NCBI GenBank assembly: GCA_022843095.1
Contig: JALHOH010000002.1
Span: forward strand, 330,001 to 362,000
Reading direction: 5' to 3'
DNA length: 32,000 nt
Origin: Candidatus Saccharimonadota bacterium
GTDB taxonomy: Bacteria > Patescibacteriota > Patescibacteriia > 2-12-FULL-60-25
Under the pieces are notes generated by a model, which was given only the letters and a program-made list of their open reading frames with translations, was not told the DNA's origin and searched no databases. Position 1 is the first letter of the stretch, and the number at the start of each line of letters is the position of its first letter. Below, one piece after another: positions 4,845-30,916 of this stretch. The position numbers and the translations under genes were made by a program.

Positions 4845-4845
4845 G

Positions 4846-9137: not shown

Positions 9138-9142
9138 CCCCT

Positions 9143-11966: not shown

Positions 11967-11972
11967 TCTCCT

Positions 11973-13064: not shown

Positions 13065-13066
13065 TA

Positions 13067-13094: not shown

Positions 13095-13106
13095 TGATCC
13101 GTCCCT

Positions 13107-13796: not shown

Positions 13797-14497
13797 TAGT
13801 GAGCGATCGGTTCAAAGGCGCGCACCGCATCCGCACACAGCGTGTATTTGGAGTGTGTGATACGTTCCAGCTGATAGGCTCGAATAAACTGCGCGACCTG
13901 TTCGGGCAACAACGTGCGAAACTTCACCTCGACCAGCACCTGCTGCGGCCTCACAGAGAGACAGGGACGCGTGTTGTGCAAATCCGCCGATTCCGTGGTT
14001 TCGAGGTCATAGTCGAAGGTGATGCGACACTGATCCATCCGATCCAGATATGCGCGGCGCTTGTACCGGACCAAGAGCCAGGGGCGTAACGGGCGCTCGT
14101 ACAAGGACCGTCGAACATCCTCGGGAAACTGCTCGACCCCGGTTCTTCCATCGCGGAGAAAGGCACGCGCCTGATCGCGGGTCAGGATGGCACGCGTCTT
14201 CCCGGTCAAGGTATCCGTTTTATGCTTTACCTCTAGCCACAATCGATCACATTCGGCGAGATTCGGTCGATATCCTCGGAGTCGCACCTTTTTTCGATGC
14301 AAGAGTCCGCCCATTTTTTCGTGGTAACACGCGAGGTCTAACGTATCGAAGTACAAACTGGTCACGGGATAAGACGTTTCCCCGGCGGGCGTACTCGGAT
14401 CCCGTTCGAGGCCGATTTGCCGGACCAAATGTTCCAGCATCATCGCTTGATGGACGGTGAGCGGATACTTGAATTCATGTCGGTACCGAATGTTCAT
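13796..14497 (-). CDS. VTC domain / polyphosphate-polymerase-like triphosphate tunnel metalloenzyme (TTM) protein
   Basis: N-terminal RHEFKY (ExK of the TTM fold), VTSLYFDTLDL, HRKKVRLRGY, VEVKF. No signal peptide or TM segment. ATGA overlap with the CotH stop (14494-14497). Confidence 0.75.
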   Translation of the reverse strand: MNIRYRHEFKYPLTVHQAMMLEHLVRQIGLERDPSTPAGETSYPVTSLYFDTLDLACYHEKMGGLLHRKKVRLRGYRPNLAECDRLWLEVKHKTDTLTGKTRAILTRDQARAFLRDGRTGVEQFPEDVRRSLYERPLRPWLLVRYKRRAYLDRMDQCRITFDYDLETTESADLHNTRPCLSVRPQQVLVEVKFRTLLPEQVAQFIRAYQLERITHSKYTLCADAVRAFEPIAH

Positions 14498-16944: not shown

Positions 16945-16980
16945 AAAGCGGGAACATCTTAGAAGGGAGGGTTTTTATCG

Positions 16981-18126
16981 TCAAACAGCCGTATTTTTTG
17001 TAATCCAGTCAAGAACCGCCTGTGCGCGATGCGTCCACGTGTACGTTCCGGCCGCCAATTCCTGTGCACGAGCGCCGTACGCGGCATACGCCGCCGGATC
17101 CTGAAGGACGTGTAGCAACACCTGCACCAATGCTGCGCGATCATCCGCCGGATAAAATACGGCAAGGTCCTCGTTCAGCACATCACGCACGGATGGAAGA
17201 TCCGACGTGACAATCGGCGTCCCACTTGCCATGTATTCGAACATTTTGAGCGGCGACATTTCATACGCATAGTGGGGCGTGTTCGGAAATGGCATCACCA
17301 GGGCATCGGCGGCGCGGTAGTACAGCGCCAATTCGGTTCGAGGACGGTTGGAGATGCAGCGGGTCGCATCCCCAGGAGCGCGTCCTTCCATCTTCAAAAA
17401 ATCCTGCTCTGATCCACCCACGAGATACAATCGCGCGTCCGGAATGCGCGTCGCGATCTCCTGCATGGCGAGATCCAGCATCCCAAGCCCCTTGCCCGCC
17501 CCCATCGTGGAAAACCGCCCTCCATACACCACCACACGCGCCTCGGGCGGGATCCCAAGCGCGGCACGCGCCTCGGCCTTGGTTTGTAACGGATGAAACA
17601 CCGCCATCTCCACGGCATCTGGAATCACGGTACAGGGTGTCTCCGGCAACGTCTCCCGCACTCGATCCGTGAGCGCTCGCGTCATGCACACGATACCCGT
17701 GACCTTCTCGAGCTTTTTCAGAACCTTGGTGGGAGGCAGTGCGTGAATCTCATAAAACACCCGTCCCACACGCGACAGCGCTTCGGCCATGCGTGCATCG
17801 CGGGTATACAACACCGCATCCGGATGGGCTTTCGCAAAACGCACCGCCTGACGCACAAACGTGGCGCGTTCGAGCACAAATGCCGGGGCAAACAGCCACG
17901 ACGGCAGATAGGGAAACAAATCGATCACCGGGAGCTCTCGCACCGAAAACGAAGGGGTCACGCCATAATGCGTAAACGGATCGCCCTGAAGCGACCCACG
18001 ACGGTTGGTCACCCCAAGCGTCACCTGTGCGTTTGCGAGACAAAGCGCTTCGCAGGTCTTCATGATTTGGTATCCATGCGCCTTTTCGGTCGGGAGGCGG
18101 ATATTTTCGAGATAGACGACATGCAT
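16981..18126 (-). CDS. Glycosyltransferase family 4
   Basis: ORF 16981..18324 trimmed to the ATG at 18126 (MHVVYLENIRLPTEKAHGYQIMKTCEAL). The C-terminal half has VVVYGGRFSTMGAGKG...YEMSPLKMFEYMASGTPIVTSD (E-x7-E-like GT4 motif). Confidence 0.8.
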   Translation of the reverse strand: MHVVYLENIRLPTEKAHGYQIMKTCEALCLANAQVTLGVTNRRGSLQGDPFTHYGVTPSFSVRELPVIDLFPYLPSWLFAPAFVLERATFVRQAVRFAKAHPDAVLYTRDARMAEALSRVGRVFYEIHALPPTKVLKKLEKVTGIVCMTRALTDRVRETLPETPCTVIPDAVEMAVFHPLQTKAEARAALGIPPEARVVVYGGRFSTMGAGKGLGMLDLAMQEIATRIPDARLYLVGGSEQDFLKMEGRAPGDATRCISNRPRTELALYYRAADALVMPFPNTPHYAYEMSPLKMFEYMASGTPIVTSDLPSVRDVLNEDLAVFYPADDRAALVQVLLHVLQDPAAYAAYGARAQELAAGTYTWTHRAQAVLDWITKNTAV

Positions 18127-18210: not shown

Positions 18211-19473
18211 ATGATTGCTCGCACAAAAGTGGCTGCCCATCGTACCCTCACCCGCCTCGGTGCCCGCATCGGGACGGATCTGGTCTACCTGGCAAAAGGC
18301 GGTTTTTGGATCAATATCCGCCAATTTTTAGCCATGGCGTTTAGTTTACTGACCGCGCTTCTTTTTGGACGCTACGTCTCGCAAGAAGTCTACGGAGAAT
18401 ACAAATACCTCGTTTCCATCTTTAGCTTGCTTACAACGCTCACCCTCACCGGGCTCGGTTCGGGCGTCATGCAAGCGATCGCGCGCGGCAATGAGGGGAC
18501 GCTTCCAAAGGCCTTTTGGCTAAACCTGCGCTGGAGCGTCTTTGCCTGTGCAGGCGCCATCGGATACGCCGGGTATCAATTGGCGCAGGGAAACACAACG
18601 CAAGGTATTGCGCTCCTCCTGATTGCCGTCACCTTCCCGTTCATTCGGAGTTTTCAATTGGCAGAATCGTTTTATACCGGGACACGTCAGTTCCAAAAAA
18701 ACGCCCTCCTCAAAGGAACGGCGGATACGCTGCTTTTTTTGGCGGTCGCGATCGTCGCCATCTGGACCAACAACGTGCTGCTTATTTTGTGCGCGTTTTT
18801 GTTTACCAGCCTCATCTCCGAAGGGACGATTTACCTCTACACGCGTTCTCGAATCACGCATCTGGAACGAGTGGAATACGACGTCTTTTCGTTCAGCAAA
18901 CATCTCAGCGTGACCGGGATCGTCTCGAGCATCGCAGGGCAAGCCGATAAACTCCTCGTCTACCATGTCCTTGGCGCGGTACCGCTTGCCGTGTACACTT
19001 TCGCGCTCGCCATTCCAAAACAGTTCCGGACGGCGGTGAGCTTTGTCGCACCTCTCGCCAAACCAAAATATGCCGTGATGGAAGAACACCAGGTCCGCAC
19101 CTCTGTCTTTCACAAGTTCGTGTTGTCGCAAGCCATCTTGATCCCGGCGACGATCGTGTATTGGCTCGCAGCCCCCTGGATCTACCAAACGTTTTTCCCG
19201 CAGTACGTGGAATCCGTAACCGCATCTCGCCTGTACGCGCTCATCTTTCCGCTCTTTGGAAACTTCAGCTTTATCGCCTTTGAAACCCAAAAGAAAACCC
19301 GAGAAACCTACCTCTCCACCCTCATTCCGAGCGTCATCCAAATCGCCCTCATGGTTGCCTGTATTTTCCCATTTGGGATCAACGGCGTGATCCTCGCGAC
19401 GCTCATCGCGAAATACGGAAGCACCCTTTATTCGCTGCTCCTTGTTTCTCGCATGCGAACATCCAATACTTAA
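18211..19473 (+). CDS. Wzx-like oligosaccharide/polysaccharide flippase (MOP superfamily)
   Basis: ORF 17593..19473 trimmed to the ATG at 18211, because the upstream part is antisense to the GT4 gene. 420 aa and very hydrophobic, about 12 TM segments, with an N-terminus typical of Wzx (GGFWINIRQFLAMAFSLLTALLFGRYVSQEVYGEY). Confidence 0.8.
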   Translation: MIARTKVAAHRTLTRLGARIGTDLVYLAKGGFWINIRQFLAMAFSLLTALLFGRYVSQEVYGEYKYLVSIFSLLTTLTLTGLGSGVMQAIARGNEGTLPKAFWLNLRWSVFACAGAIGYAGYQLAQGNTTQGIALLLIAVTFPFIRSFQLAESFYTGTRQFQKNALLKGTADTLLFLAVAIVAIWTNNVLLILCAFLFTSLISEGTIYLYTRSRITHLERVEYDVFSFSKHLSVTGIVSSIAGQADKLLVYHVLGAVPLAVYTFALAIPKQFRTAVSFVAPLAKPKYAVMEEHQVRTSVFHKFVLSQAILIPATIVYWLAAPWIYQTFFPQYVESVTASRLYALIFPLFGNFSFIAFETQKKTRETYLSTLIPSVIQIALMVACIFPFGINGVILATLIAKYGSTLYSLLLVSRMRTSNT

Positions 19474-19480
19474 AAGCCGT

Positions 19481-20497
19481 ATGATGAAATTCATTGTCGC
19501 CATCCTTCTTGGCATTGTCGGACACGGGACCTTTGTTCAGGCGCAACAGACGCCGATCGATATCCGAGCGTTTGAAAACGTCCGCATCGAACAGGAGGAT
19601 AAAATCTTGGTTCCCGAGGGGAAGGCGGATGAAGTCTGGAAGTACATCACGGAACGATATTTGAATCAGGAACATGTAAAAACCCTGGATCCGGAATTTT
19701 CGACGTACCACCACGACGAACAGTTTGAAGACCGTTATTTTGATACACCCGACCTGTTCATGCTGGGAAAGAAAAGTGGTATTCGACATCGCAAGCGCGA
19801 AAACCTGACCGATCCCACCGACCGAAAGGATGGACGCGAGCTTGTTCAGATCAAACTAAACAACATCAGCGACAACCCGCTTGAACGCGCAGAAATCAAG
19901 TTTGACGTCGAATACCCTCTCTATCGCGAGGGAAAAGAAAATACGCATCCTTTGATCGGCGTCATCAAAGAATCCGATCGACGCGCGTTTTTCACAGAAA
20001 CGGCAAAACTTGGAATTGACCCGTTTTCGCTCCGCCCGGTTGTGACGCTCCACAACCTCCGTCGGCGCGTCTACTTCAAAAAAGGCGATCAGCCGTTCAT
20101 GTCCATTTCGTTTGACTACGTGAACAGCAACGTGTGGTGGGCAAAGGCGAATTTTGTCGAAATTGAACCGGAATTAAACGAAGAACAGTTCACCGCCGCC
20201 TCCCCAGAAACACGGCGTTACATGGAAGAAAAGCTGCACCTCCTCATGACGGATTTAAAAACCAAATTTCCATACCTACAAACCAATCTCACCCCAAAGT
20301 ACAACAAAACGTTTGAACGGATCGAGCACGCTTTGCCTTTTTTTCGTTTCTTGGTGCAAATCTACTTCCATACCGTGGAAGGGATGCTGCTTGTGATTGC
20401 CGGGATCCTGGCGCTGATCGGAGGCGTGGGATACGCGATCCGCGCCCGCATCCTTGCCGCCCGCACAAAAAAACACGAGGCAGAACTTGCCTCGTGA
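19481..20497 (+). CDS. Exported, C-terminally membrane-anchored CYTH (triphosphate tunnel metalloenzyme) domain protein
   Basis: Start at the ATG at 19481, 7 nt after the flippase stop. Signal peptide MMKFIVAILLGIVGHGTFVQA-QQ. CYTH ExExK signature RIEQEDKILV. Also DRYFDTPDLFML...GIRHRKRE and FVEIEPEL. C-terminal TM GMLLVIAGILALIGGVGYAI followed by a basic tail RARILAARTKKHE. Confidence 0.75.
   Translation: MMKFIVAILLGIVGHGTFVQAQQTPIDIRAFENVRIEQEDKILVPEGKADEVWKYITERYLNQEHVKTLDPEFSTYHHDEQFEDRYFDTPDLFMLGKKSGIRHRKRENLTDPTDRKDGRELVQIKLNNISDNPLERAEIKFDVEYPLYREGKENTHPLIGVIKESDRRAFFTETAKLGIDPFSLRPVVTLHNLRRRVYFKKGDQPFMSISFDYVNSNVWWAKANFVEIEPELNEEQFTAASPETRRYMEEKLHLLMTDLKTKFPYLQTNLTPKYNKTFERIEHALPFFRFLVQIYFHTVEGMLLVIAGILALIGGVGYAIRARILAARTKKHEAELAS
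20467..20496 (-). terminator. Rho-independent terminator of the NeuB-like gene, embedded in the last codons of the convergent CYTH gene
   Basis: The minus strand reads CACGAGGCA-AGTTC-TGCCTCGTG (9-bp stem) followed by TTTTTTTGTG. It lies 14 nt downstream of the stop at 20510-20512. Confidence 0.65.
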
Positions 20498-20509: not shown

Positions 20510-21523
20510 TTAGACGCGGCGCAGTTTCTTCATCGTTGCGATCTCGCCGTCGAGGACGCGCTTGACCCCATCGCCGCAGATCTTCTGGAGATCCTCGGCG
20601 GACGCCCAGTCCGTGATCTTGGCGGTACCGGCTTCCAGCGCACGGATCTTCGTGACGAGCTCCGCCATCTGTGCCGGCGCGAGCGACGCCTTCTGATCCG
20701 ACCCGGGCATCTTCTTATCGAGGGTGATGTGCCGCTCGATCACGCAGGCGCCCATCGAAGCCGCGACGAGCGAGGGGAGGATTCCCTCCTCGTGGCCGGA
20801 GTATCCGACCGGCACGTCCGGAAACGCGCGACGCAGGAGGTTCATCACCTCCAGGTTTGCGTCTTCGTCACGCGCCGGGTAGGTGCTGACGCAGTGCAAG
20901 AGCACCAGATCTTGGGTGCCGAGCACCTCAACGGCGTGCGTAATCTGCTCGAGCGTCGACCCACCCGTCGAGAGGATCACCGGCTTCCGGTTCGATCGCA
21001 CCCGACGCAGCAGGTCATCGTGGGTCAGGCATGGCGATGCGATCTTGTGCCACGCCACATCGAAGCCGTTCATGAAGTGGGCGCTGAGCCCATCCCAGGA
21101 AGAGGCGGCGAAGTGAATCCCGCGGCTCTTGCAGTGCCGCTCGATCTCGTCGAACTCGGCGAGGCCGAACTCGAGGGACCACTTGAGGTCCCCGTTCGTC
21201 GTGCGCTCGGGCTCGATGAAGAGCCGCGCGCACGCCTCGTCCGGCAGGACCATCCGACGCTTCCCGCCCAGCATCGCGCGCTCGCGTGCATGTGCGATGA
21301 AGCTCGGGTCAAACGCGCGTGGCGTCGCGAGCTCCTCGGCGGTGTACACGGTCGGCACATCGCGCTTCTGGAACTTCACCGCGTCGCACCCGGCCTCGAC
21401 CGCGACGTCGATCAGCCGCTTCGCGATCGCGAGACTGCCGTTGTGGTTGATGCCGATTTCGGCAATAACATAGCACGGATTCCCGGGGCCGATCTTTCGA
21501 TCGGCGAAACACACCGCCTTCAT
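20510..21523 (-). CDS. NeuB/NANS-family ulosonic acid (phosphate) synthase, PEP-condensing; no C-terminal SAF domain
   Basis: ORF trimmed to the ATG at 21523, preceded by AAGGAG. PCYVIAEIGINHNGSL...AGCDAVKFQ...PVILSTGGST...LLHCVSTYPA...VGYSGHEEG...VIERHITLDKKMPGSDQKASLAPAQMAELV. The protein is 337 aa and ends about 20 residues after the barrel. Confidence 0.85.
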   Translation of the reverse strand: MKAVCFADRKIGPGNPCYVIAEIGINHNGSLAIAKRLIDVAVEAGCDAVKFQKRDVPTVYTAEELATPRAFDPSFIAHARERAMLGGKRRMVLPDEACARLFIEPERTTNGDLKWSLEFGLAEFDEIERHCKSRGIHFAASSWDGLSAHFMNGFDVAWHKIASPCLTHDDLLRRVRSNRKPVILSTGGSTLEQITHAVEVLGTQDLVLLHCVSTYPARDEDANLEVMNLLRRAFPDVPVGYSGHEEGILPSLVAASMGACVIERHITLDKKMPGSDQKASLAPAQMAELVTKIRALEAGTAKITDWASAEDLQKICGDGVKRVLDGEIATMKKLRRV

Positions 21524-21528
21524 GTGAA

Positions 21529-21534
21529 CTCCTT
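21529..21534 (-). promoter_or_regulatory. Shine-Dalgarno site (AAGGAG) of the NeuB-like gene
   Basis: The minus strand reads AGAAGGAGTTCAC-ATG, a 5-nt spacer. Confidence 0.6.
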
Positions 21535-21594
21535 CTTTCTGACTCGCAATGTGCGAACTCGGGTCAAAGAAAAACACACCCGTATCAGGCCGTC

Positions 21595-21624
21595 AATAAA
21601 ACCCCCCTCACGAGCGAGGGGGGT
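21595..21624 (-). terminator. Rho-independent terminator after the HAD gene, separating it from the NeuB-like gene
   Basis: The minus strand reads TAA-GTG-ACCCCCCTC-GCTCGT-GAGGGGGGT-TTTATT. An 8-9 bp G/C stem is followed by a T-rich tract, directly after the stop at 21628-21630. Confidence 0.7.
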
Positions 21625-21627
21625 CAC

Positions 21628-22311
21628 TTATGGATAGAGAAGGGCGCTACAGGCTTCTCGCAGGGTATTTGCGAAGCACTCCTCTGGAATGCCTCGGTCG
21701 AACCCCTCTCGACGACGCGCTTCCGTATCAGGAACGATCCGACATTGGATTCCCGCACCGTTCGCGGAAGCGTATCCCTTCCACTCATTCTCGACCGCGA
21801 GGCAGATGCTCGGATCGAACGCGACACGATGGAGCGCGAGGTGATAAACCGCGGAATCCGGCTTACTCGCCCCAGCCTCATGCGTACTCACGAACGCATG
21901 AAACCAGGCACGCCATCCCATGATCTCCGAGGTCCGACGAATGAGATTGGGTGACATCCCAGAGACAATCGCCATGCGATACCCGCGAGCCAAAAGTTGC
22001 TCCAGGACATCGGACACATCCTCCTGAGTCGGCTTCAGGTGCAGGGCGTAATAGGCGCACATCGCCTCCTCACGACTCGCCTTGATCTCTGAGACCTGCG
22101 TGGAGAGACCGTGCGTTTCTATGCATTCCTGGAAAATATGGTCCAGGAGAACACCTGCGTCACGACGGGCGCGCCAGACCGGTTTCCAAGCCTCCCAATT
22201 CGTTGCTCCGAGAAGCGATGAGAAAAACGCCTCATCGATCCGTGGCCAGTGACGCTCGCTTTGAACGAGCGTCCCGTCCAGATCGAACAGGACACCAGCG
22301 ATCTCGCTCAC
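21628..22311 (-). CDS. HAD-IA (beta-phosphoglucomutase-like) phosphatase
   Basis: Start assigned to the GTG at 22311, preceded by GGAGG with a 4-nt spacer and overlapping the SIS stop (GTGA). (V)SEIAGVLFDLDGTLV is motif I (DxDGT). AIVSG is motif II, ASKPD is motif III, and LAVENEWKGYASANGAGI is a motif IV-like region. Confidence 0.8.
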   Translation of the reverse strand: MSEIAGVLFDLDGTLVQSERHWPRIDEAFFSSLLGATNWEAWKPVWRARRDAGVLLDHIFQECIETHGLSTQVSEIKASREEAMCAYYALHLKPTQEDVSDVLEQLLARGYRMAIVSGMSPNLIRRTSEIMGWRAWFHAFVSTHEAGASKPDSAVYHLALHRVAFDPSICLAVENEWKGYASANGAGIQCRIVPDTEARRREGFDRGIPEECFANTLREACSALLYP

Positions 22312-22919
22312 GGCGCCTCCGGAACACACACCCGCTCGATCACCTCGCACCAGGCGTGGATGATGAGGATGTGCCCTTCTTGAATGCGCGGCGTGGCCGC
22401 GGACGGAACGATGAGCGCGTGGTCCACAAGGGACGCCGCCTGACCTCCGTCACGCCCCAACAGTCCGACCGTCACCATGCCGCGCGCGCGTCCCGTCTGA
22501 AACGCAGCGAGAAGATTCTTGGATCCCCCGCTGGTCGAGATGCCAATAAAGGCATCCCTTTCCGTTCCATGCGCTTCGAGCTGACGGCTAAAGACCGTGT
22601 CGTACCCCACGTCATTCGCCCATGCGGTCAGCATGGACGTGTCGGTGGTAAGCGCGACCGCACGGATCGGGGGACGATCTCGGAGATATCGTCCCACAAG
22701 CTCCGCGGCAAAATGCTGCGCATCCGCCGCACTCCCGCCGTTGCCGGCGATGTAGAGCGTTCCGCCCTTGCGCACGCACTGCGCGAGCACGGCGCCGATC
22801 GCAGAGAAGTTCCGGACGAATGCCTCATCCGCTTGCATGCGCGAAAGAAGCGCCTGCTGTTCTTTGAGCGCATCACGGAACGTCGTTCCGAACGCACCCT
22901 CTTCGTCTGAAAGGTCCAT
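22308..22919 (-). CDS. gmhA: SIS-domain phosphoheptose isomerase family protein (GmhA type)
   Basis: GNGGSAADAQHFAAELVGRY...ALTTDTSMLTAWANDVGYDTVFSRQ...GISTSGGSKN...GLLGRDGG...PRIQEGHILIIH matches the GmhA/DiaA SIS pattern along its whole length. Start set at the ATG at 22919. The track start at 22970 is a TTG that would overlap the upstream gene by 19 nt. Confidence 0.8.
   Translation of the reverse strand: MDLSDEEGAFGTTFRDALKEQQALLSRMQADEAFVRNFSAIGAVLAQCVRKGGTLYIAGNGGSAADAQHFAAELVGRYLRDRPPIRAVALTTDTSMLTAWANDVGYDTVFSRQLEAHGTERDAFIGISTSGGSKNLLAAFQTGRARGMVTVGLLGRDGGQAASLVDHALIVPSAATPRIQEGHILIIHAWCEVIERVCVPEAP
22316..22320 (-). promoter_or_regulatory. Shine-Dalgarno site (GGAGG) of the HAD gene, inside the 3' end of the SIS gene
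   Basis: The minus strand reads GGAGG-CGCC-GTG. Confidence 0.55.
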
Positions 22920-22951
22920 GGACGAAGAACTACCCGCAAAATGGAACCTCG

Positions 22952-23767
22952 TCAAGCGTTTTCGTTCCAATGTGTCGCAAAAAATGCACGATGCTGACGC
23001 GCCGTTTCGCGCTCGGATGATCCACGCGTCGTTTCAAAGGTATACGCACCGGCATACCCCACCTCTTTGCAGGCACGCGCAACCGCCGAAAAAGGGACCT
23101 GTCCCGTTCCTAGGATCACGTTTTTTCCGGCCGCATCCTTATCCTTAATATGAACATGCACGATCCGTTCGCCAAGCAGACGAATTTCTGCAGGGACATC
23201 ATATCCAAACGCCGAACGATTCCCCGTGTCATAACACACCCCCACACGATCGCCACACGAGCCAAGAAGAGTCAGCTGCTCGTCCACCGTCGCATCCGTT
23301 TCGATGGCATACCGCAGCGTTGCGGGAGATGAATTCCGCAGCCGCCGGATGATCGTCGCGGCACGCGAGACGCGCTCCGGCTGATCACGCAAACTCGACC
23401 CCTCAAGCCAAGGAAGCACCACCAACGAGATGCCAATAGCCGCCGCGCGCTGGAACACCGTCATCGCCTCTTGTAACGCCTCCTCACAAGCATCGGAATC
23501 CTCAAACCATGGCCGTGCCATGAGCGGATCGTACGTCATGGAATACGCCGGTGTTCCGGCCTTCTCCATCGCAACACGCGCGTCCTCCAACCCCTCCCCC
23601 GTCCACAACGGATTCGCCGGATTCGGCTCGCGATCGGTAATCCATTCCAAATAATCAAATCCATCCTCACGAGCAATCGCAAACTCTTCTCGCCACGCGG
23701 TGTTTGGAAACTGCTGGATCACCCCACCCGACGGGGTGAGCCGTCCTTGTGTCATGCCGATCATCAT
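22952..23767 (-). CDS. Sugar phosphate isomerase/epimerase (xylose-isomerase-like TIM barrel)
   Basis: 271 aa. N-terminus MTQGRLTPSGGVIQQFPNTAWREEFAIAREDGFDYLEW is typical of the glycan-cluster TIM-barrel family. Also HVHIKD near the C-terminal third. Confidence 0.7.
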   Translation of the reverse strand: MMIGMTQGRLTPSGGVIQQFPNTAWREEFAIAREDGFDYLEWITDREPNPANPLWTGEGLEDARVAMEKAGTPAYSMTYDPLMARPWFEDSDACEEALQEAMTVFQRAAAIGISLVVLPWLEGSSLRDQPERVSRAATIIRRLRNSSPATLRYAIETDATVDEQLTLLGSCGDRVGVCYDTGNRSAFGYDVPAEIRLLGERIVHVHIKDKDAAGKNVILGTGQVPFSAVARACKEVGYAGAYTFETTRGSSERETARQHRAFFATHWNENA

Positions 23768-23784
23768 AGCGTTGGGTCACGACC

Positions 23785-24621
23785 TTACCACACGCTCCGC
23801 CCTCCATCGATGACGACGTTTTGGCCCGTCATATACGCGCTCGCATCCGAGCACAAAAAGACGAGCGTGCGCGTCACGTCTTCGGGCGTCGCCATGCGTC
23901 CAAGCGGAATCAACTGCGTCAACCGTTTTACAAACGCCGGGTCCACCGTCGGTTGCCAAATGCCCCCAGGAGAAATCGCATTCACGCGCACCCCTTCGTC
24001 GGCCCAATAGGTCGCCAAGTATTTGGTCAGTCCCACAAGCGCGTGCTTGACCACCGAATAACTCGCCGGCTTTTTTGGCGCCTGATTGGGATCCATCCCA
24101 TCCGCCACGTAAATACGATGATCTGGCGCAATCACCGAGAGATCGCTCGCAATATTTACGATCACCCCCGAACGCTGGGCGGCAAACAGCGGGCCGATCA
24201 CTTTGCACATCAAAAACGCCGCAGTGACCCCGACTTCCAAATCTTTTTCCCAAAGCGCCAATGGAAACGTCTCCACACGACCATTGTGTGCAAGCGCCCC
24301 TTCTCCGCCAGTTTTGGGATTATTCGCGGCATTGTTCACCAAAATATCCAGACGTCCAAATGCCTCCTGCACCGACTGAACCGCCGCACGAATCGCCTCT
24401 TCGTTTGTGATGTCGACCGTCCATCCACGAATAGCACCCGATGGATCAAGCGTCGCCGCGATCGACGCCGTGTCTGGATGAATATCAAACAGAGCGACGC
24501 GTGCGCCCGCCTCGCGCAGCGCTGTTGCGTGCGCCCGTCCCAAAAACCCAACCCCGCCGGTCACGATGGCGACGCGGCCGTCCAATACCGTTGCAGAAAA
24601 TGGCGTAGTCATAACATCCAT
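23785..24621 (-). CDS. Classical SDR family oxidoreductase
   Basis: True ATG at 24621 (the track start is a TTG one codon upstream), overlapping the upstream stop (TGATG). VTGGVGFLGRA (TGxxxGxG), NNAA, YSVVKHAL (YxxxK). Confidence 0.85.
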   Translation of the reverse strand: MDVMTTPFSATVLDGRVAIVTGGVGFLGRAHATALREAGARVALFDIHPDTASIAATLDPSGAIRGWTVDITNEEAIRAAVQSVQEAFGRLDILVNNAANNPKTGGEGALAHNGRVETFPLALWEKDLEVGVTAAFLMCKVIGPLFAAQRSGVIVNIASDLSVIAPDHRIYVADGMDPNQAPKKPASYSVVKHALVGLTKYLATYWADEGVRVNAISPGGIWQPTVDPAFVKRLTQLIPLGRMATPEDVTRTLVFLCSDASAYMTGQNVVIDGGRSVW

Positions 24622-25391
24622 CAAGAAAACGAAGTTGTTTGTCCACCGTCTACCACGAACGCGCTTCCGGTCACAAACGCGGCCTCTGGACGACTAACAT
24701 ATTCCACCAATGACGCCACTTCTTCGGGCGTACCAAACCGTTGCTGAGGGACGCTCGCCTGGAGCATCGCGTGGATTCGGTCGGGATCTGCCGCGCGTTT
24801 TTGCTCCCATCGTCCTCCCGGAACCAATATATTCCCCGGATGGATCACGTTCACGCGAATGCCGTCCGTGGCAAGAGAGAAAGAAAGTTCTTTTGCGTAG
24901 GTGTGCAGCGCCGACTTTGCCACCGCGTACGGCACCGGTGCCCCCAGATGCTGTAGCCCCGCGATCGAACCGATGAGACAAATGCTACTAGGTGATCCGG
25001 CGCGTAAAAGCGGCAAACAGGCATCCACCGTACGGACATGGCACCAAAAATTCTGCGCAAACGCCCCTTCCCACTCAGACCAGGGAACAGGATAGCCGGT
25101 CGCCCATGCGCCATTCCCAACGCACGAAATCAGCGCATCCAAACGCGGGGCAACGGCCCGACATCCATCCGCAAACGCCTGCGCGCCCGCCTCTGTGGTG
25201 ACATCGGCGCACACGCCATACACCTGCGCCGTTTCCGGAAACGCCGCTTTTGCCTCCGCAATCCCCTGTTCGGTCCGGCCGTTCACAATCACCGTCGCCC
25301 CGGCACGAGCAAATGCCTGCGCACAAGCAAGACCGATCCCACGCGTGGAACCGGTTAGTGCAATGACGCGTGGCGTCGAGGAAGAATGCAT
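24621..25391 (-). CDS. Classical SDR family oxidoreductase
   Basis: LTGSTRGIGLACA (TGxxxGxG), YAVAKSAL (YxxxK), VNVIHPGNI. It is the first gene of the minus-strand unit 25391 to 21628. Confidence 0.85.
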   Translation of the reverse strand: MHSSSTPRVIALTGSTRGIGLACAQAFARAGATVIVNGRTEQGIAEAKAAFPETAQVYGVCADVTTEAGAQAFADGCRAVAPRLDALISCVGNGAWATGYPVPWSEWEGAFAQNFWCHVRTVDACLPLLRAGSPSSICLIGSIAGLQHLGAPVPYAVAKSALHTYAKELSFSLATDGIRVNVIHPGNILVPGGRWEQKRAADPDRIHAMLQASVPQQRFGTPEEVASLVEYVSRPEAAFVTGSAFVVDGGQTTSFS

Positions 25392-25482
25392 AAAATCCCT
25401 TGCTTTTTTGCGTAATTCGTTGGTAGAGTCAAGTCGGGATCGTCCCTTCTACCCTAACGGAGAACGCTCTGATCCGCAATCC

Positions 25483-25490
25483 AAAGGAGG
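25483..25490 (+). promoter_or_regulatory. Shine-Dalgarno site (AAAGGAGG) of the radical SAM gene
   Basis: AAAGGAGG-ATTC-GTG. It is the strongest ribosome-binding site in the window. Confidence 0.65.
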
Positions 25491-25494
25491 ATTC

Positions 25495-27114
25495 GTGAAC
25501 GCACTACCCGTCATCCAGCACGCAACCGCGTCGAACGAGGCGCCCCGGCTGCAAGGCCTCCGCGCCGTGTTCATCAACATGCCGCTCCGAGAATCGGCGC
25601 GGCCCAACACCCCGCCCGAAGGCCCGGCGCTCTTGGCTGCACGTCTTCGTGAAGCAGGCGCCGACGTCTCCATCATCGATCTGAACGCCTACCGGATTCA
25701 GGACGAAGACGCGGCGACGCGCGGACTCCCCTACGGCCGTCATCTGACGCAAGCCGAAGCGGAGGCGCTCATCCAGCGCCACTTCCAGAAGCACGGTGCG
25801 CCGCGTCTCATCGCCCTCTCTGGGATGATTACGACGTTGCGCTGGCAAGAACGCATCGCAACCTTCTGCCGTCGCATGGTCCCGGACGCGAAGATCCTCT
25901 CCGGGGGCGGTCTGGCGACGGAACTGAAGGGCGCGCTTTTGCGCTGGATTCCGGCGCTCGACGCCATCGGTCACTCCGAAGGAGATGACATCATCCTCGC
26001 CATCGGCCGCGACGTGCTCGCAGGGACCCTGCAACCGGTCTACGCCGGCGACCGACCGGTCGCGCTGGATCGCCTGCCGCTTCCGGCGTGGGATCTGCTG
26101 CACACCGACGTGGATGGCAATCCGCTTATCGAGTGGTACATCCAGACGCCGGTGTGGGGCGGCGCGGCGGGCAATAGCTCCGCCACAAGCTTCACGATGA
26201 CGCGCAGCCTCACCACAGTGAGCTCGCGTGGCTGTCCGTACGCCTGCTCCTTCTGCTACCGCGGGGCGCAGGGCGAACGTAACTGGGGGATGCGTTCCGC
26301 GGAGGCGCTCATGCATCAAGCGGCGTTGTACAAGGAAATGTACGGGATCGATTTCCTGGGCTTTCCGGACGACAACTTCGCCATCGATCGCAAGCGCATC
26401 GCGCACCTCCCCGAGACGCTCGGCAAGGTCGGGATCCGTTGGGGCACGCACACGCGCCTGGACGAAGCCGATGATCGGCTGGAACCCATGGCGAAATCCG
26501 GGTGTGTCTACATCGGATTCGGCGCAGAAAGCGCCAGCAAACCGGTGCTGACGCGCATGAAGAAGGGCGGATTCATCCTGAAGCGTGGGATGGTACGCCC
26601 GGAAGGGGCGGATCGCGCATTCCCGAAGACCATGGTCGATGGGATCGAGAACTGCCTCCGCGTGGGTATCCACGCGAACTGCACCTGGATCATGGCCTAC
26701 CCCGGCGAAACGCTGGAAGACCTGCAAACCAGCATCTCCTTCATCCTCTGGCAACAAGAACGCGTGACTCGCGGGCTCGTGGCCGGAACGGAGGCGCATC
26801 AGATCGCGCTCGCCTCCATCAATCGACGCATGTTCACCGCCACGGCCTATCCGGGCACGGACATGTTTACCGATCCGGATGTGAAGCCGCTGCTCGGCAA
26901 ACACTTCGGCATCCGCTTCGACGACACCGGCGAGCCGGTCGCAGACGAGGCGCTTCGTCGATACATCGAAGAGCTGGACGATGCGACCAAGGTGCTGCAC
27001 GGCACCGACGGTCAACCGCTGAACGCCTCCCGCATGTCCATGGACACCTTCCTCACGGCACGCGCCCTCGTGGACGCCGGCAACCTGGAAGCGGTTCTGG
27101 ACTTGAAGGAATAA
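25495..27114 (+). CDS. B12-binding-domain-type (class B-like) radical SAM enzyme
   Basis: ORF 25195..27114 trimmed to the in-frame GTG at 25495, behind the SD site. N-terminal B12-binding-like region: RAVFINMPLRESARPNTPPEGPALLAARLREAGADVSIIDLN. Radical SAM cluster motif SSRGCPYACSFCY (CxxxCxxC), then GFGAESASKPVLTRMKKG. Confidence 0.85.
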   Translation: MNALPVIQHATASNEAPRLQGLRAVFINMPLRESARPNTPPEGPALLAARLREAGADVSIIDLNAYRIQDEDAATRGLPYGRHLTQAEAEALIQRHFQKHGAPRLIALSGMITTLRWQERIATFCRRMVPDAKILSGGGLATELKGALLRWIPALDAIGHSEGDDIILAIGRDVLAGTLQPVYAGDRPVALDRLPLPAWDLLHTDVDGNPLIEWYIQTPVWGGAAGNSSATSFTMTRSLTTVSSRGCPYACSFCYRGAQGERNWGMRSAEALMHQAALYKEMYGIDFLGFPDDNFAIDRKRIAHLPETLGKVGIRWGTHTRLDEADDRLEPMAKSGCVYIGFGAESASKPVLTRMKKGGFILKRGMVRPEGADRAFPKTMVDGIENCLRVGIHANCTWIMAYPGETLEDLQTSISFILWQQERVTRGLVAGTEAHQIALASINRRMFTATAYPGTDMFTDPDVKPLLGKHFGIRFDDTGEPVADEALRRYIEELDDATKVLHGTDGQPLNASRMSMDTFLTARALVDAGNLEAVLDLKE

Positions 27115-27120
27115 CCCTGT

Positions 27121-27151
27121 CCCCGATCGACATTACGATCGGGGATTTTTT
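27121..27151 (+). terminator. Rho-independent terminator of the radical SAM gene; overlaps the stop codon of the convergent methyltransferase
   Basis: ccccgatcg-acatta-cgatcgggg followed by attttttg. The stop codon (27133-27135) of the minus-strand gene lies in the loop. Confidence 0.75.
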
Positions 27152-28083
27152 GTAGGCCGAATCAGCAACAAACTTGGCTCTTTTGGCAGCGCATTCACCT
27201 CTGCGGCGTAGACATACGGCGCGCACTCCAAATGGTTCACCTCCTGCAAACGACGCGTCCCCAAAAGACGTCGTTGTACACCAAACGGCAACCGACTAAA
27301 CGCCCATTTCATCCAACGGACAGGTGCATGGCGACTGACCGTTTTCGCGACATGGAGATGCGTTACCGCGAGCCCCGCGCCTTCCGCCAACCGTTGCCAA
27401 TCCTTCAAGCGAAATTCACGTTCCCCGTTCATACGGCGCGTCAGTCGGACGGCGGGGTCAACCCCCATCTTTTTCTTCGCCTCCTCGGTATATTCAACGT
27501 CGAGGAGCGCATCCAATGCGGCGTCATCCAACCGATTGGCGCGCGCTTTATCCAAACACACGATCACGCCATCCGGACGCAATACGCGTCGAAATTCCTG
27601 AAACACCGCCCCGAGATCCGGAGCATGATGCAGGGAATAAAAATCAAAGATCGCATCCACCGATTCATCAGGCAGTCCGATCCGCGCAAACTCCCCCACG
27701 CATCCGGTCACAGGCGCATCCGACGGACGCCGCAACGCCTCCACGACGCGTGACATGAGCAGCTCCACCTGGTTTGCGCAGGCATCCATGGCATACACCT
27801 CTGCAACCCCAGGAATCCCAGAAAGCAGCGTGCTAAAAAACCCGCATCCGGCCCCGGCTTCCAGCACGACGCCACGAAACGGACGTCCGGATTCACGCTG
27901 GATACGCTGAAGCAACGCGCGCATTCCGGCGATCGTCACCTCTGGCGCATCCCCGTCGAAGGTCACCGCTTGCGCGATGGTGAGCGGATCCTTGCCGGCA
28001 AGCGCACGCGCAAACTCCGTGCGGTAATGACGGGCTAATTCCGCCTCGAGCGTCGGATCAATGGGCCATCGTACCATCTCCAT
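27133..28083 (-). CDS. Class I SAM-dependent methyltransferase
   Basis: Motif I VVLEAGAGCGFFSTLL, then VDAIFDFYSLHH and DGVIVCLD. ATG at 28083. Confidence 0.8.
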   Translation of the reverse strand: MEMVRWPIDPTLEAELARHYRTEFARALAGKDPLTIAQAVTFDGDAPEVTIAGMRALLQRIQRESGRPFRGVVLEAGAGCGFFSTLLSGIPGVAEVYAMDACANQVELLMSRVVEALRRPSDAPVTGCVGEFARIGLPDESVDAIFDFYSLHHAPDLGAVFQEFRRVLRPDGVIVCLDKARANRLDDAALDALLDVEYTEEAKKKMGVDPAVRLTRRMNGEREFRLKDWQRLAEGAGLAVTHLHVAKTVSRHAPVRWMKWAFSRLPFGVQRRLLGTRRLQEVNHLECAPYVYAAEVNALPKEPSLLLIRPTKNPRS

Positions 28084-28124: not shown

Positions 28125-28862
28125 ATGCGTATCCTTGGAGTCATTCCGGCGCGTGGCGGGTCAAAACGCGTCTACAAAAAAAATATCCGCCCGTTGCTTG
28201 AGAAACCCCTCATCGCCTGGACGATCGAGGCGGCGTGTCTTGGGCTTCCCGGTCGCACCATCGTTTCCACGGATGATCCAGAAATCGCCGAGATCGCGAA
28301 AGCGGCGGGTGGAGAGGTTCCCTTCATTCGTCCTGAACAACTCGCAACCGACACCTCTGGCATCGAAGGGGTGTTGCGTCATGCGTATGAATGGATGCGC
28401 GACCACGCACAGTACGAAGCGGACGCGATCGCGCTCTTGCTTCCGACCAATCCCACGCGCCAGCCGTTTCATCTACGCGAAGCCGTGGAACGGATGGCGA
28501 ACACCGGCGCCGATAGCGTCGTTGCTGTCGTCCCCGCACTCGCCAACATGAATCCCGCCTGGATTCTGAAGCGTGATACCGACGGACGCGTCTGCCTGCA
28601 TGACGGCGAACCTCTCACAAAGATATTGACGCGAAGCCAAGACCTGCCGCCACGTTTTTCGCGCAACGACTTGGTGTATCTGCTCAAACCCGCGAACCTG
28701 TATCAGGCCACGCCGAATTTATACGGCGATCACGTAGAACTCCTGGAAACCGATGATTTTTTTACCGCGGATATCAACACCGAAAACGACTGGTTCATGA
28801 CCGAACAGAAGATGCGTCTCCTTCGGGACGGGAAGGTGCCTGGCGGATCGCTGCCGCAATAA
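28125..28862 (+). CDS. Acylneuraminate cytidylyltransferase family protein (CMP-ulosonic acid synthetase, NeuA-like)
   Basis: Start set at the ATG at 28125 (the track start at 28089 is a TTG). MRILGVIPARGGSKRVYKKNIRPLLEKPLIAWTIEAA...VSTDDPEIAEIAKAAGGEVPFIRPEQLATD...LLLPTNPTR. Confidence 0.85.
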   Translation: MRILGVIPARGGSKRVYKKNIRPLLEKPLIAWTIEAACLGLPGRTIVSTDDPEIAEIAKAAGGEVPFIRPEQLATDTSGIEGVLRHAYEWMRDHAQYEADAIALLLPTNPTRQPFHLREAVERMANTGADSVVAVVPALANMNPAWILKRDTDGRVCLHDGEPLTKILTRSQDLPPRFSRNDLVYLLKPANLYQATPNLYGDHVELLETDDFFTADINTENDWFMTEQKMRLLRDGKVPGGSLPQ

Positions 28863-30213
28863 ACGCCCCGATCCGTTCGCCCGCGTGGCCATCGCACTGG
28901 TACAACTGCTGCGCGCGCATCCGATCACGCCCCTCTTTGTCCAACGAGGGGTTTTGCAAATACGCATTGATCGCCTCGATCAATTCCTTCGCAGACTTCA
29001 CGATGCGAACGCCCCCGCACGCGATCATTTTTTTCATGTGATCTTCGTCGTGGTACCGCTGCACACTTTGCAAATACGGCAACGTCTTTGTGCCATCAAA
29101 ATCCAAAATAATTTGCGGTTTGTCGTACACGAGCGAATCCACACCAAGCGTCGTCGCCACGTACAACACCACATCTGCGTGGTACAGCGTGTCCGCAAGG
29201 TGACGAATGTCATCCTGAGACAATTCCTGCGCTTTTGAACGTCCTCCAAACGAAATACCGGGATGCTCCGACGTTAAATGCGGACGCGAAACCAACATTG
29301 GCATTGGATGGTTCGGATGATTGCGGACATGGAGATGCACGGGCGAGACAAACGCCCCCGTATCCATCGCCTGAACAAACACATCCAGAAGTTCATGATC
29401 CGTTTGTGAAAGCAACTGTCCCGCCGGGGCAAACAGGAGTAGTTTTCGCGAGGGATCAGTTGCGCCAATTTTTTCAAAAAACGCCTCACGCGAAAGCCGC
29501 GTCCCCCGCACGGATTCATCATACTGCGGCGTGCCACCGACAAACACGCGATCTGCAGGGACGTCATGCATCTGGGTCACCTCCTCTTTGATGGTCGTAT
29601 TATTCGTGATGACCTGATCCGGAATCACGGGCAACACCCCTTTGCTCCAACAATTATCCCATGAGCGTACCATCCCGATGACCGGGACCCCGTTCCGACG
29701 CGCCGTCGCATTCAAAAGCGCATCCGTGCCATCAAAAATATCCGTCGAAAACACCGCATCCGGCTTTACGGCGTCAAACAACTGCTCCATTTCTGGCGCA
29801 AAGGAATAGCGCTGATACAGGCGCCGAAACAATCGACGAACAACCCGTCGTTCCGCGATGAGCTTGATGATGAGCGTCTCGAGTCCATGACGCAGATATT
29901 TGAGAGGCGATCGGCGGGCACGCAACCGCTCGTGCCGCTTGTACCACAGGTAATGCGTGTCCTGACACAACACCGCAAGCGTATGGAGCCATTGTTGCGA
30001 ACGCGTCGCAGCAATCGCCGGAACCGGAATTCCGCGTACTTCTACGCCAAGCGGAGCCAGAACCTCTGCAAAATACCCCACTTTGATCTCGGGTACCGCC
30101 ACGACCACGCGAAGGTCCGGTTCCTGTACAAGCGTCTTCAAAACGTCCGATCCCAGGATATTTTTTCCGATGTACCCATGAAACGCTCCCAGCAAAAGTG
30201 TACGCATAGACAT
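28795..30213 (-). CDS. GT-B-fold transferase-like protein of uncertain family (TagF/CDP-glycerol-transferase-like features); candidate ulosonic acid transferase
   Basis: 472 aa from the ATG at 30213 (TAATG overlap with the upstream stop). VFVGGTPQYD...KLLLFAPAG...LYHADVVLYVATTLGVDSLVYDKPQIILDFD loosely resembles the GYPR.D / LYAPT.R / ITDYSS pattern of TagF-type enzymes. The family call is weak. Confidence 0.45.
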   Translation of the reverse strand: MSMRTLLLGAFHGYIGKNILGSDVLKTLVQEPDLRVVVAVPEIKVGYFAEVLAPLGVEVRGIPVPAIAATRSQQWLHTLAVLCQDTHYLWYKRHERLRARRSPLKYLRHGLETLIIKLIAERRVVRRLFRRLYQRYSFAPEMEQLFDAVKPDAVFSTDIFDGTDALLNATARRNGVPVIGMVRSWDNCWSKGVLPVIPDQVITNNTTIKEEVTQMHDVPADRVFVGGTPQYDESVRGTRLSREAFFEKIGATDPSRKLLLFAPAGQLLSQTDHELLDVFVQAMDTGAFVSPVHLHVRNHPNHPMPMLVSRPHLTSEHPGISFGGRSKAQELSQDDIRHLADTLYHADVVLYVATTLGVDSLVYDKPQIILDFDGTKTLPYLQSVQRYHDEDHMKKMIACGGVRIVKSAKELIEAINAYLQNPSLDKEGRDRMRAQQLYQCDGHAGERIGAFIAAAIRQAPSRPEGDASSVRS

Positions 30214-30914
30214 TACGCGAAAGTCACCTCGTAACACACCTGATGGCCAAACAGATTAGGAAAGCGACGCATCCACCATCCGCCAAATCCATTGGATGCC
30301 TCGACACGACGCACCGTCCCGCCCTGCGCGCGGAGCCAATCTAAAAAGTCCAGATGCGACCAAAAACGCAGGTGCTCTGACGGATGCGACACCCATTGCG
30401 TAAAAAATCGTCCGCCAAAAAGAAGTCCGAACCGGTACCGATAATACGCGCTATTCGGCACAGAAAGCAGGAACGTTGTGCCAAATGGCTTGAGCGCATG
30501 CAGCGCATTTTCCGGATAACGCAGATGCTCGAGCACCTCGGATAACACGATCACGTCATACCGTTGATCCAGTGCGATCGCTTCCGGACGCTCCAAATCC
30601 ACCACGCGCGTCTCGATTGACTGGTTCGCGAATCCTTCCAACACCATGGGGCTCACATCCGCCACGGTCACGGGATTTCCACGATCGCGCAGCACAACCG
30701 GCAATCGCGAGGTTCCGCACCCAATATCCAACACCCGCGCCGTTGCCGGAATCCAGGACGCGAACACCGCCTCCCGAGGCTTGAGCTTGGGATTGATCGC
30801 AAACCCGCGTCCGCGCCAGTACGCGTCGTAATCCTGCACACCGGGACCCGGAAACACGGGAACGCGCGTCCCCGTAAACGCAAAGCGACGCCGGAGCGAG
30901 GCGAAGATCCCCAT
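30213..30914 (-). CDS. Class I SAM-dependent methyltransferase
   Basis: Start set at the ATG at 30914, 2 nt after the upstream stop. Motif I RVLDIGCGTSRL, then YDVIVLSEVLEHL. Confidence 0.8.
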   Translation of the reverse strand: MGIFASLRRRFAFTGTRVPVFPGPGVQDYDAYWRGRGFAINPKLKPREAVFASWIPATARVLDIGCGTSRLPVVLRDRGNPVTVADVSPMVLEGFANQSIETRVVDLERPEAIALDQRYDVIVLSEVLEHLRYPENALHALKPFGTTFLLSVPNSAYYRYRFGLLFGGRFFTQWVSHPSEHLRFWSHLDFLDWLRAQGGTVRRVEASNGFGGWWMRRFPNLFGHQVCYEVTFA

Positions 30915-30916
30915 AC

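Follow-up and report, generated by a model that had tools for sequence, protein, structure and literature searches.

A patescibacterial surface-glycan locus pairing GmhA with a NANS-like synthase, a candidate route to ten-carbon ulosonic acids

The known ulosonic acids, which comprise the eight-carbon 3-deoxy-D-manno-octulosonic acid (Kdo) and the nine-carbon 3-deoxy-D-glycero-D-galacto-non-2-ulosonic acid (Kdn) and sialic, legionaminic (Leg) and pseudaminic (Pse) acids, are key surface determinants, and glycan structures are predicted from genomes by way of their pathways. In the Kdo pathway (KdsD, KdsA, KdsC, KdsB) a SIS-family isomerase converts a ketose phosphate to an aldose phosphate, which is then condensed with phosphoenolpyruvate (PEP), dephosphorylated by a HAD phosphatase and activated with CMP. 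The Kdn pathway of Bacteroides thetaiotaomicron (BT1714) and Prymnesium parvum uses a NeuB-family synthase that acts on a terminally phosphorylated aldose and PEP, after which a HAD phosphatase and a CTP_transf_3 cytidylyltransferase act in turn. The animal N-acetylneuraminic acid (Neu5Ac) pathway (NANS, NANP, CMAS) also takes a phosphorylated substrate and follows it with a HAD phosphatase, and the nucleotide-heptose pathways (GmhA, HldE/HddA, GmhB, HldE/HddC) have GmhA as their first enzyme. Here we analyze a 32,000-nucleotide stretch of a Candidatus Saccharimonadota genome (contig JALHOH010000002.1, positions 330,001 to 362,000; hereafter the window), and in particular a block of six minus-strand genes at 20510-25391.

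The window is a long glycan-biosynthesis locus that encodes a priming sugar transferase, several GT1/GT4 enzymes, NDP-sugar epimerases and dehydratases, a DegT aminotransferase, a flippase and methyltransferases. Within this locus of a member of the Patescibacteria, or candidate phyla radiation (CPR), the six-gene block is most likely the precursor-supply module for a surface glycan. On the minus strand the order is two short-chain dehydrogenases (SDR2, then SDR1), a TIM barrel protein, a GmhA-type SIS isomerase, a HAD-IA phosphatase and a NeuB-family synthase. Beyond the block lie a B12-radical-SAM enzyme (SAM, S-adenosylmethionine), a methyltransferase, a NeuA/PseF-like cytidylyltransferase, a TagF-like putative transferase and a second methyltransferase. 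An initial annotation made from the sequence had described these genes as Kdo-like logic built from non-orthologous parts, and this description stands: GmhA is found in place of KdsD, a NeuB/NANS-like protein in place of KdsA, a HAD-IA enzyme in place of KdsC and a NeuA/PseF-like protein in place of KdsB. Profile searches over the larger open reading frames (ORFs; at least 180 residues in positions 1-17000, and the main ORFs beyond) confirm the locations and family assignments of the six genes and the cytidylyltransferase. Some gene boundaries had to be redrawn, in that the synthase starts at ATG 21523 and not at 21577, the GmhA gene spans 22308-22919, and the HAD gene has a GTG start at 22311.

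In the pathway that we propose, GmhA would convert sedoheptulose 7-phosphate (S7P) to D-glycero-D-manno-heptose 7-phosphate, as its orthodox sequence features suggest. The synthase, which lacks a SAF domain and resembles NANS, would condense this heptose phosphate with PEP to give 3-deoxy-dec-2-ulosonate 10-phosphate, the one-carbon-longer homologue of Kdn 9-phosphate (Kdn-9-P). The HAD-IA enzyme, occupying a slot that is of the KdsC/Kdn-9-P-phosphatase type in related clusters, would strip the terminal phosphate. The eventual product would be a CMP-activated, methylated 3-deoxy-dec-2-ulosonic acid, a reading to which we assign a probability of roughly 0.5. Its component parts differ in strength. 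The phospho-type logic of the pathway is very probably correct and a phosphorylated acceptor in the synthase reaction appears well supported, whereas the seven-carbon nature of that acceptor is the weaker step.

The synthase gene (20510-21523, minus strand) has an AAGGAG ribosome-binding site just 5' of its ATG. Its 337-residue product, identical to database protein P0001, is predicted to be a PEP-condensing enzyme of the ulosonate-phosphate type. It matches PF03102 with an E-value of 2.8e-69 and 233.7 bits (cut-off 22.1), and lies below the curated NeuB/LegI equivalog TIGR03569 (234.5 bits, cut-off 399.65) and the PseI equivalog TIGR03586 (173.5 bits, cut-off 340.25). The AEIGINH, KFQ, SGH and ERH motifs are kept, catalysis in the NeuB family being judged by the equivalents of E25, K53, Q55, H215 and H236 of Neisseria meningitidis NeuB (NmNeuB). 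The AlphaFold2 model of the protein (predicted local distance difference test score, pLDDT, 95) has its best structural matches in SpsE, NeuB and PseI, with template-modeling (TM) scores of about 0.7, and KDO8PS ranks far below NeuB in the same fold search. No SAF match was returned by the profile search, and the C-terminus (GDGVKRVL..MKKLRR) aligns to the NANS linker just before the AFP/SAF domain, so that the protein ends where that domain would begin, as the initial annotation had recognized. The extra segment that it had placed after the KFQ strand is likewise real, although its length is 31 residues relative to human NANS rather than about 35. This insert is kept across the patescibacterial clade and is predicted to form ordered helices (pLDDT 93-96); the archaeal homologues, like human NANS, are without it. 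A second insert of 16 residues near the C-terminus is limited to the subclade of the window protein, the closest relatives of which come from Candidatus Kaiserbacteria, Paceibacterota and other Patescibacteria.

The synthase is closer to the animal NANS type than to bacterial NeuB, with which the first impression gained from its motifs agrees: GYSGHE and ERHITLDK are common to the synthase and NANS. In BLASTP comparisons with the human NANS reference sequence (confirmed by an exact database match) the window protein reaches 34% identity and 185 bits and other members of its clade 33-41% identity and 181-226 bits, the archaeal homologue aligning at 39% identity with only 3 gaps. The same proteins score lower against segments of NmNeuB (25-34% identity, 97-152 bits). 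A rough neighbor-joining (NJ) tree of 113 sequences gathers the SAF-less, phosphatase-linked proteins into one clade with human NANS as its sister. Two lysines are common only to this clade and NANS. At the position of K114 (NANS K85) 33 of the 36 clade members have lysine and 2 arginine, and at that of K333 (NANS K290) 33 have lysine; both positions are hydrophobic in 76 other NeuB homologues. Phosphate recognition by NANS has been attributed to its alpha2-beta2 loop (PMC8208679), which we take to be the equivalent of the variable segment after the KFQ strand that holds both K114/NANS K85 and the patescibacterial insert. By sequence proximity, the synthase appears to fit the phosphosugar-using NeuB subfamily of the NANS and Kdn-9-P synthase type.

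The genes surrounding the synthase and its relatives also speak for a phosphorylated intermediate. The HAD-IA phosphatase (21628-22311, minus strand; DLDGT motif) matches PF00702, PF13419 and HAD-SF-IA-v3 (TIGR01509), and its best family matches are HxpB, CbbY and 2-deoxyglucose-6-phosphate phosphatase. Only HAD-IA models were hit, with no match to TIGR01670 or NF058599 (KdsC/Kdn-9-P phosphatase), and there is no specific similarity to NANP, which a Protein Data Bank (PDB) search did not return at E<=1e-5. Identification as a mutase of the beta-phosphoglucomutase type was rejected (only 32 bits against a cut-off of 189). The stop codon of the GmhA gene overlaps the start of the HAD gene as GTGA (...GCG CCG TGA / GTG AGC GAG...), and the translational coupling noted in the initial annotation can thus be read directly from the sequence. 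We used tblastn and profile scans over 123 related loci, and inspected the contig of the closest relative, to see what accompanies the synthase elsewhere. A phosphatase adjoins it in 11 of 13 independent patescibacterial clusters, being of the KdsC/YrbI type in nine and of the HAD-IA type in two, and in Methanomicrobiales a KdsC-like phosphatase immediately precedes the synthase at all loci that extend far enough upstream to show it. The KdsC/YrbI-type enzymes of these relatives are about 170-190 residues long; their scores are 104-109 bits for TIGR01670 (cut-off 107) and 77-98 bits for the Kdn-9-P phosphatase model from B. thetaiotaomicron. The HAD-IA type fills the slot in the window and in the closest relative (69% identical), with the order SIS, HAD-IA, NeuB in both. 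The order SIS, HAD, synthase is the same in Patescibacteria and archaea despite the different type of HAD enzyme. At the scanned loci of more distant, SAF-containing homologues (marine Thaumarchaeota and others) neither phosphatase type was found. Because the phosphatase slot shows non-orthologous displacement, the pathway would seem to need a phosphatase and hence to run via a phosphorylated ulosonate. We regard this displacement as strong evidence, drawn from gene content, for the kind of intermediate used in the Kdn and animal Neu5Ac routes (PMC6200933), in line with the phosphorylated intermediate initially suggested.

What the phosphorylated acceptor might be is indicated by the GmhA gene (22308-22919, minus strand; PF13580), the 203-residue product of which equals database protein P0121 and is predicted to be a sedoheptulose-7-phosphate isomerase. 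It scores 182.3 bits against TIGR00441 (cut-off 209.45) and 191.5 against PRK13936 (cut-off 276). In the PDB it matches the Campylobacter jejuni (1tk9, 7e-54) and Burkholderia pseudomallei (2x3y, 1.3e-51) enzymes at ~50% identity over 176-185 residues, and its nearest database relatives are ordinary bacterial GmhAs (57-64% identity). The four residues for metal binding and catalysis (His, Glu, Gln, His) are all kept, as are the phosphate-binding Ser/Thr motifs, in the segments GNGGSAADAQHFAAE (AQH..AAE), ALTTDTS, GISTSGGS and RIQEGHILIIH. To judge from these sequence features the SIS protein is an orthodox GmhA. In Methanomicrobiales, all 13 loci with enough upstream flank have an operon of co-directional, overlapping genes for a transaldolase, GmhA, a KdsC-like phosphatase and the SAF-less synthase, and a split transketolase precedes the transaldolase in each of the 11 that extend so far. 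Beyond the synthase, the longer ones encode an aminotransferase (class IV or III), a TIM barrel protein, a methyltransferase, two SDRs and a CTP_transf_3 protein. Transketolase and transaldolase are what is needed to make S7P from fructose 6-phosphate (F6P) and glyceraldehyde 3-phosphate, and the archaeal operon context points to S7P as the likely feedstock. Enzymes that would carry the heptose into a nucleotide-heptose route were sought alongside. No HldE-like kinase/nucleotidyltransferase was detected in the Methanomicrobiales loci, nor among the Pfam-scanned genes of two of them. The scanned ORFs of the window include no kinase, GmhB-type phosphatase, NTP_transferase-type enzyme or heptose nucleotidyltransferase, in accord with the initial annotation, and the searches of the closest relative's contig and of related clusters from the two clades likewise turned up neither a kinase nor a GmhB-type phosphatase or heptose nucleotidyltransferase. 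The suggestion that a heptose is the acceptor is thus strengthened by an orthodox GmhA and by the archaeal transketolase and transaldolase, and the ten-carbon product itself stays at the level of inference.

Several observations weigh against this reading. GmhA falls just below its curated equivalog cut-off, and it is encoded nearby in only 4 of the 13 patescibacterial clusters (the window, the closest relative, L045 and L049), with a transaldolase in two others. Because of this restricted distribution, the common acceptor of the clade could be a housekeeping sugar phosphate such as mannose 6-phosphate (Man-6-P); alternatively, the acceptor may not be uniform across the clade, or GmhA may be encoded elsewhere in these genomes. 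A heptose kinase and nucleotidyltransferase could likewise be encoded outside the visible 32 kb. The NJ tree is without support values, the sampling of loci is biased by the HITLDKKM search pattern, and likeness to NANS is common to many other prokaryotic NeuB homologues, SAF-containing ones included. Between the HAD stop and the synthase start there is a G+C-rich hairpin, CCCCTCGCTCGTGAGGGGGG, followed by TTTTATT (21602-21621, minus strand), which is terminator-like or attenuator-like. This hairpin and the strong ribosome-binding site of the synthase itself suggest that transcription of the synthase is buffered from that of the five genes upstream.

The main alternative to our reading is a nine-carbon route of the Kdn type, in which the synthase would be a Kdn-9-P synthase acting on Man-6-P and PEP, the HAD enzyme a Kdn-9-P phosphatase, and CMP-Kdn would then be methylated. 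GmhA would in that case feed heptose to another residue of the glycan, or act on F6P as a phosphomannose-type isomerase. In B. thetaiotaomicron a Kdn-9-P synthase is known to work together with a KdsC-type Kdn-9-P phosphatase, and Man-6-P is a substrate of human NANS (PMC6200933). The small HAD enzymes of related clusters match the Kdn-9-P phosphatase model at the scores given above, and the nine patescibacterial clusters without GmhA nearby fit such a route. It leaves unexplained, however, why the archaeal loci have both transketolase and transaldolase beside GmhA wherever the flank reaches, when supply of F6P or Man-6-P needs neither in the operon. GmhA, moreover, keeps every S7P-isomerase residue, is 50-57% identical to bona fide GmhAs and is translationally coupled to the phosphatase in the window, and no heptose-activating enzyme was seen in any cluster. 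We rank a heptose 7-phosphate acceptor above Man-6-P because transketolase and transaldolase would be pointless for the latter, and consider the nine-carbon route rather unlikely. The same ten-carbon product could also arise in a different order, with the HAD enzyme first dephosphorylating heptose 7-phosphate and the synthase taking free D-glycero-D-manno-heptose and PEP. HAD-IA enzymes are generic sugar-phosphate phosphatases, as the matches to HxpB, CbbY and 2-deoxyglucose-6-phosphate phosphatase illustrate, and the HAD gene does sit between those for GmhA and the synthase. In the relatives, though, this slot is filled by KdsC/YrbI-family enzymes, the characterized members of which are known to act on 2-keto-3-deoxy-acid phosphates. 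The synthase, for its part, has the two lysines common to its clade and NANS and absent from free-sugar enzymes, and lacks SAF, the domain that supplies Arg314 for free-sugar binding in NeuB (PMC8208679). Taken together, these features make the free-heptose order improbable.

A further possibility separates the two halves of the block: GmhA and the HAD enzyme would serve a GDP- or ADP-heptose route completed outside the window, and the synthase would independently make a nonulosonic acid of the Neu5Ac, Leg or Pse type. In its favor, no more than 32 kb can be seen, genes for a DegT aminotransferase and an RmlB-like dehydratase are found at a distance of 8-11 kb, and in one proteobacterial locus (L013) a SIS protein is encoded next to a NeuB-SAF-TIM fusion and an HldE-like kinase/adenylyltransferase. 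That SIS protein, however, is without the catalytic Glu and Gln of GmhA, and the window HAD enzyme is not of the GmhB (HAD-IIIA) type. The order GmhA, phosphatase, synthase is met in both bacteria and archaea, with neither a kinase nor a heptose nucleotidyltransferase detected alongside, and the synthase, lacking SAF, falls well short of the NeuB and PseI equivalog cut-offs. Among the scanned ORFs of the window there is no NeuC/LegG hydrolyzing epimerase, PseB, PseG or PseH, no LegB-type dehydratase and no N-acetyltransferase. We therefore give this division of labor only a slim chance. With these defining enzymes absent from the scanned ORFs and the synthase failing the equivalog cut-offs, an ordinary Pse, Leg or Neu5Ac cluster was rejected; the only DegT aminotransferase of the window scores 298 against the PseC model, for which the cut-off is 423. 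Analogy with PtmA and PtmF of the Campylobacter legionaminic acid route was also rejected. The literature gives PtmF as a 326-residue oxidoreductase, not a SIS isomerase, and PtmA as a 254-residue protein with no function stated, so the analogy does not explain the SIS gene.

To return to the ten-carbon pathway that we favor, the steps between dephosphorylation and activation would fall to SDR1, joined here by the TIM barrel protein and SDR2, through oxidation, epimerization and reduction, a chemistry that is speculative. SDR1 (23785-24624, minus strand) and SDR2 (24621-25391, minus strand) are classical short-chain dehydrogenases matching PF13561 at 2e-51 and 8e-41, respectively. SDR1 is 46-48% identical to an SDR of the Methanomicrobiales clusters and most patescibacterial clusters have an SDR, usually one most similar to SDR1; a PDB sequence search with SDR1 returned generic SDRs only. 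SDR2 is 33-38% identical to the archaeal SDR2. The xylose-isomerase-like TIM barrel protein (AP_endonuc_2; 22952-23767, minus strand), a putative tailoring epimerase or isomerase, matches PF01261 at 1.1e-25 and has L-ribulose-5-phosphate 3-epimerase UlaE as its best PDB match (1e-8). Since it and SDR2 are missing from the cluster of the closest relative, both appear to be accessory. A functional tie between the TIM barrel and NeuB enzymes is nevertheless indicated by the existence of NeuB-SAF-TIM fusion proteins of 589-632 residues in about a dozen loci (Desulfobacterota and others).

These fusions were encountered in metagenome-assembled genomes of Desulfobacterota/other Pseudomonadota (L013 at 495-2429, also L014-L017, L114, L117 and L119-L122). 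The neighbors of the L013 fusion include a divergent SIS protein, a domain-swapped HldE-like heptose kinase/adenylyltransferase, a radical-SAM/SPASM enzyme and a transketolase, and this locus may encode a nucleotide-heptose-based route to a higher ulosonic acid.

The two SAM-dependent methyltransferases and the B12-radical-SAM enzyme would add O-methyl and possibly C-methyl groups, again speculatively. The B12-binding radical-SAM enzyme (25363-27114, plus strand; the ORF opens at 25195 and the start codon is uncertain) matches PF04055 and PF02310, has weak matches to PhpK, KedN5 and ApyD-type methyltransferase models, and is a candidate class B C-methyltransferase; homologues of 45-47% identity occur in six other patescibacterial clusters. 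Such candidate C-methyltransferases would, as a separate observation, be an alternative means of lengthening the carbon backbone. Methyltransferase MT1 (27133-28083, minus strand; PF08241) co-occurs with the synthase in most patescibacterial clusters, and the MetW-like MT2 (30213-30938, minus strand; PF13489, PF07021) recurs in related clusters. The presence of aminotransferases in archaea and of methyltransferases and B12-radical-SAM enzymes in CPR bacteria suggests lineage-specific decoration of a common scaffold. Among the archaea, syntenic Methanomicrobiales operons differ in the aminotransferase that follows the synthase, which is of class IV (branched-chain or D-amino-acid aminotransferase type) in L010 (10855-11838), L006 and L009 and of class III in L005 (12652-14043), L062 and L071. 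This swap of aminotransferase class is a second non-orthologous replacement in the same pathway.

The NeuA/PseF-like cytidylyltransferase (28125-28862, plus strand), a predicted CMP-ulosonate synthetase, would then make the CMP-sugar, which the TagF-like transferase would add to the glycan for export by the neighboring flippase. The cytidylyltransferase matches PF02348 (2.1e-19, 70.7 bits, cut-off 22.6). Its score for the PseF model TIGR03584 is 137.6 bits (cut-off 205.7), and with no KdsB model does it exceed 44 bits; homologues of 48-51% identity are present in 12 of the 13 patescibacterial clusters. The GT-B assignment initially made at 28795-30213 is plausible, with weak support from profiles, and the ORF extends over 28795-30237 (minus strand). 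This putative ulosonate transferase of TagF-like or GT-B-like fold has only weak matches to PF13439 (Glyco_transf_4), PF04464 (Glyphos_transf, TagF-type) and a BFO_1060-family glycosyltransferase, and no match in a PDB sequence search. Related clusters repeatedly contain homologues of 35-40% identity, and in the closest relative a Glyphos_transf protein occupies the same position.

Elsewhere in the window, a DUF4956 protein, a VTC-domain protein and a CotH-kinase/beta-helix protein lie within the glycan locus at 13107-16944, and a CYTH-domain membrane protein (19442-20497) is encoded directly downstream of the synthase and convergent with it; domains of this set are linked to polyphosphate or triphosphate chemistry. 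An ORF of 595 residues (7350-9137, plus strand) has partial NDP-sugar dehydrogenase domains and, at its C-terminus, a SAM methyltransferase, and a truncated UDP-glucose dehydrogenase-like ORF (5808-6635, minus strand) lies near it; the two could represent a fusion, a frameshift or gene remnants. Among the related loci, L041 (also L042 and L043) has two NeuB-family genes, of 238 and 340 residues (7853-8569 and 10001-11023), around a 400-residue protein without a Pfam match, with a divergent KdsC-like HAD and two SDRs alongside. Locus L004 (13731-16302; L051 is the same and L050 similar), which is without GmhA, encodes a KdsC-like HAD, a Staphylococcus-type transaldolase, a 205-residue protein and a Cof-type HAD, and may use a different sugar-phosphate supply. 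The 205-residue ORF after the transaldolase was considered as a SIS protein and rejected, its sole resemblance being a faint one to P-loop kinases.

Environmental NeuBs that lack SAF are noted in a large NeuB phylogeny, which assigns them no function (PMC8208679). Our literature search found no description of a GmhA-plus-NeuB pathway, of ulosonic acids in Patescibacteria or Methanomicrobiales, or of decose or ten-carbon ulosonic acids, with the exception of the SugarBase preprint (bioRxiv 10.64898/2026.04.20.719630). In the latter, mass spectrometry (MS) of Magnetospirillum gryphiswaldense detected CMP-activated ulosonic acids that give a C10 marker fragment, with no genes assigned, and on this evidence C10-type ulosonic acids probably exist in nature. 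The initial view of a ten-carbon acid as unprecedented thus survives for the biosynthetic route, none having been published that we could find, and has to be qualified for the compound class.

Extending the proposal to both groups of organisms, we tentatively suggest, at a little short of even odds, that the surfaces of Patescibacteria and Methanomicrobiales bear 3-deoxy-dec-2-ulosonic acids made from S7P by GmhA, a SAF-less synthase and a phosphatase, and aminated (in the archaea) or O-/C-methylated (in CPR bacteria) before CMP activation. If so, this sugar class would extend to ten carbons, and the locus would define genetically, for the first time, how ulosonic acids beyond nine carbons are made. 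It would offer a genetic handle on the unexplained higher-carbon CMP-ulosonic acids seen by MS, a function for a large group of SAF-less environmental NeuB homologues, and a surface feature common to CPR bacteria and methanogens, both of which have poorly known envelopes. It would also provide new aldolase, phosphatase and cytidylyltransferase parts for the chemoenzymatic synthesis of sialic acid analogues.

Set against the described systems, the locus shows partial likeness. None of its four core proteins is an orthologue of the corresponding Kdo enzyme. In the Kdn pathway, with which the comparison is by the description of BT1714, the phosphatase is of the kind found in our related clusters. 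The window operon differs in having a dedicated GmhA, to which the archaea add transketolase and transaldolase, implying a seven-carbon rather than a six-carbon acceptor; it also differs in its SAF-less synthase, HAD-IA phosphatase and many tailoring genes (SDRs, TIM barrel protein, methyltransferases, B12-radical-SAM enzyme). From the animal Neu5Ac pathway, which contains the closest characterized homologue of the synthase in NANS, it is set apart by the missing AFP/SAF domain, by the 31-residue helical insert after KFQ and by the lack of an encoded supply of N-acetylmannosamine 6-phosphate (GNE). With the nucleotide-heptose pathways it shares an orthodox first enzyme, whereas their later enzymes were detected neither in the window nor in related clusters from the two clades. 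The Magnetospirillum compound resembles the predicted product in being a CMP-activated alpha-keto acid with a backbone longer than nine carbons, and differs in being a diacetamido sugar of the Leg/Pse type without assigned genes. The pathway thus resembles the Kdo, Kdn and NANS routes yet belongs to none of them, differing in its isomerase, in the type of its phosphatase, in the architecture of its synthase and probably also in its acceptor.

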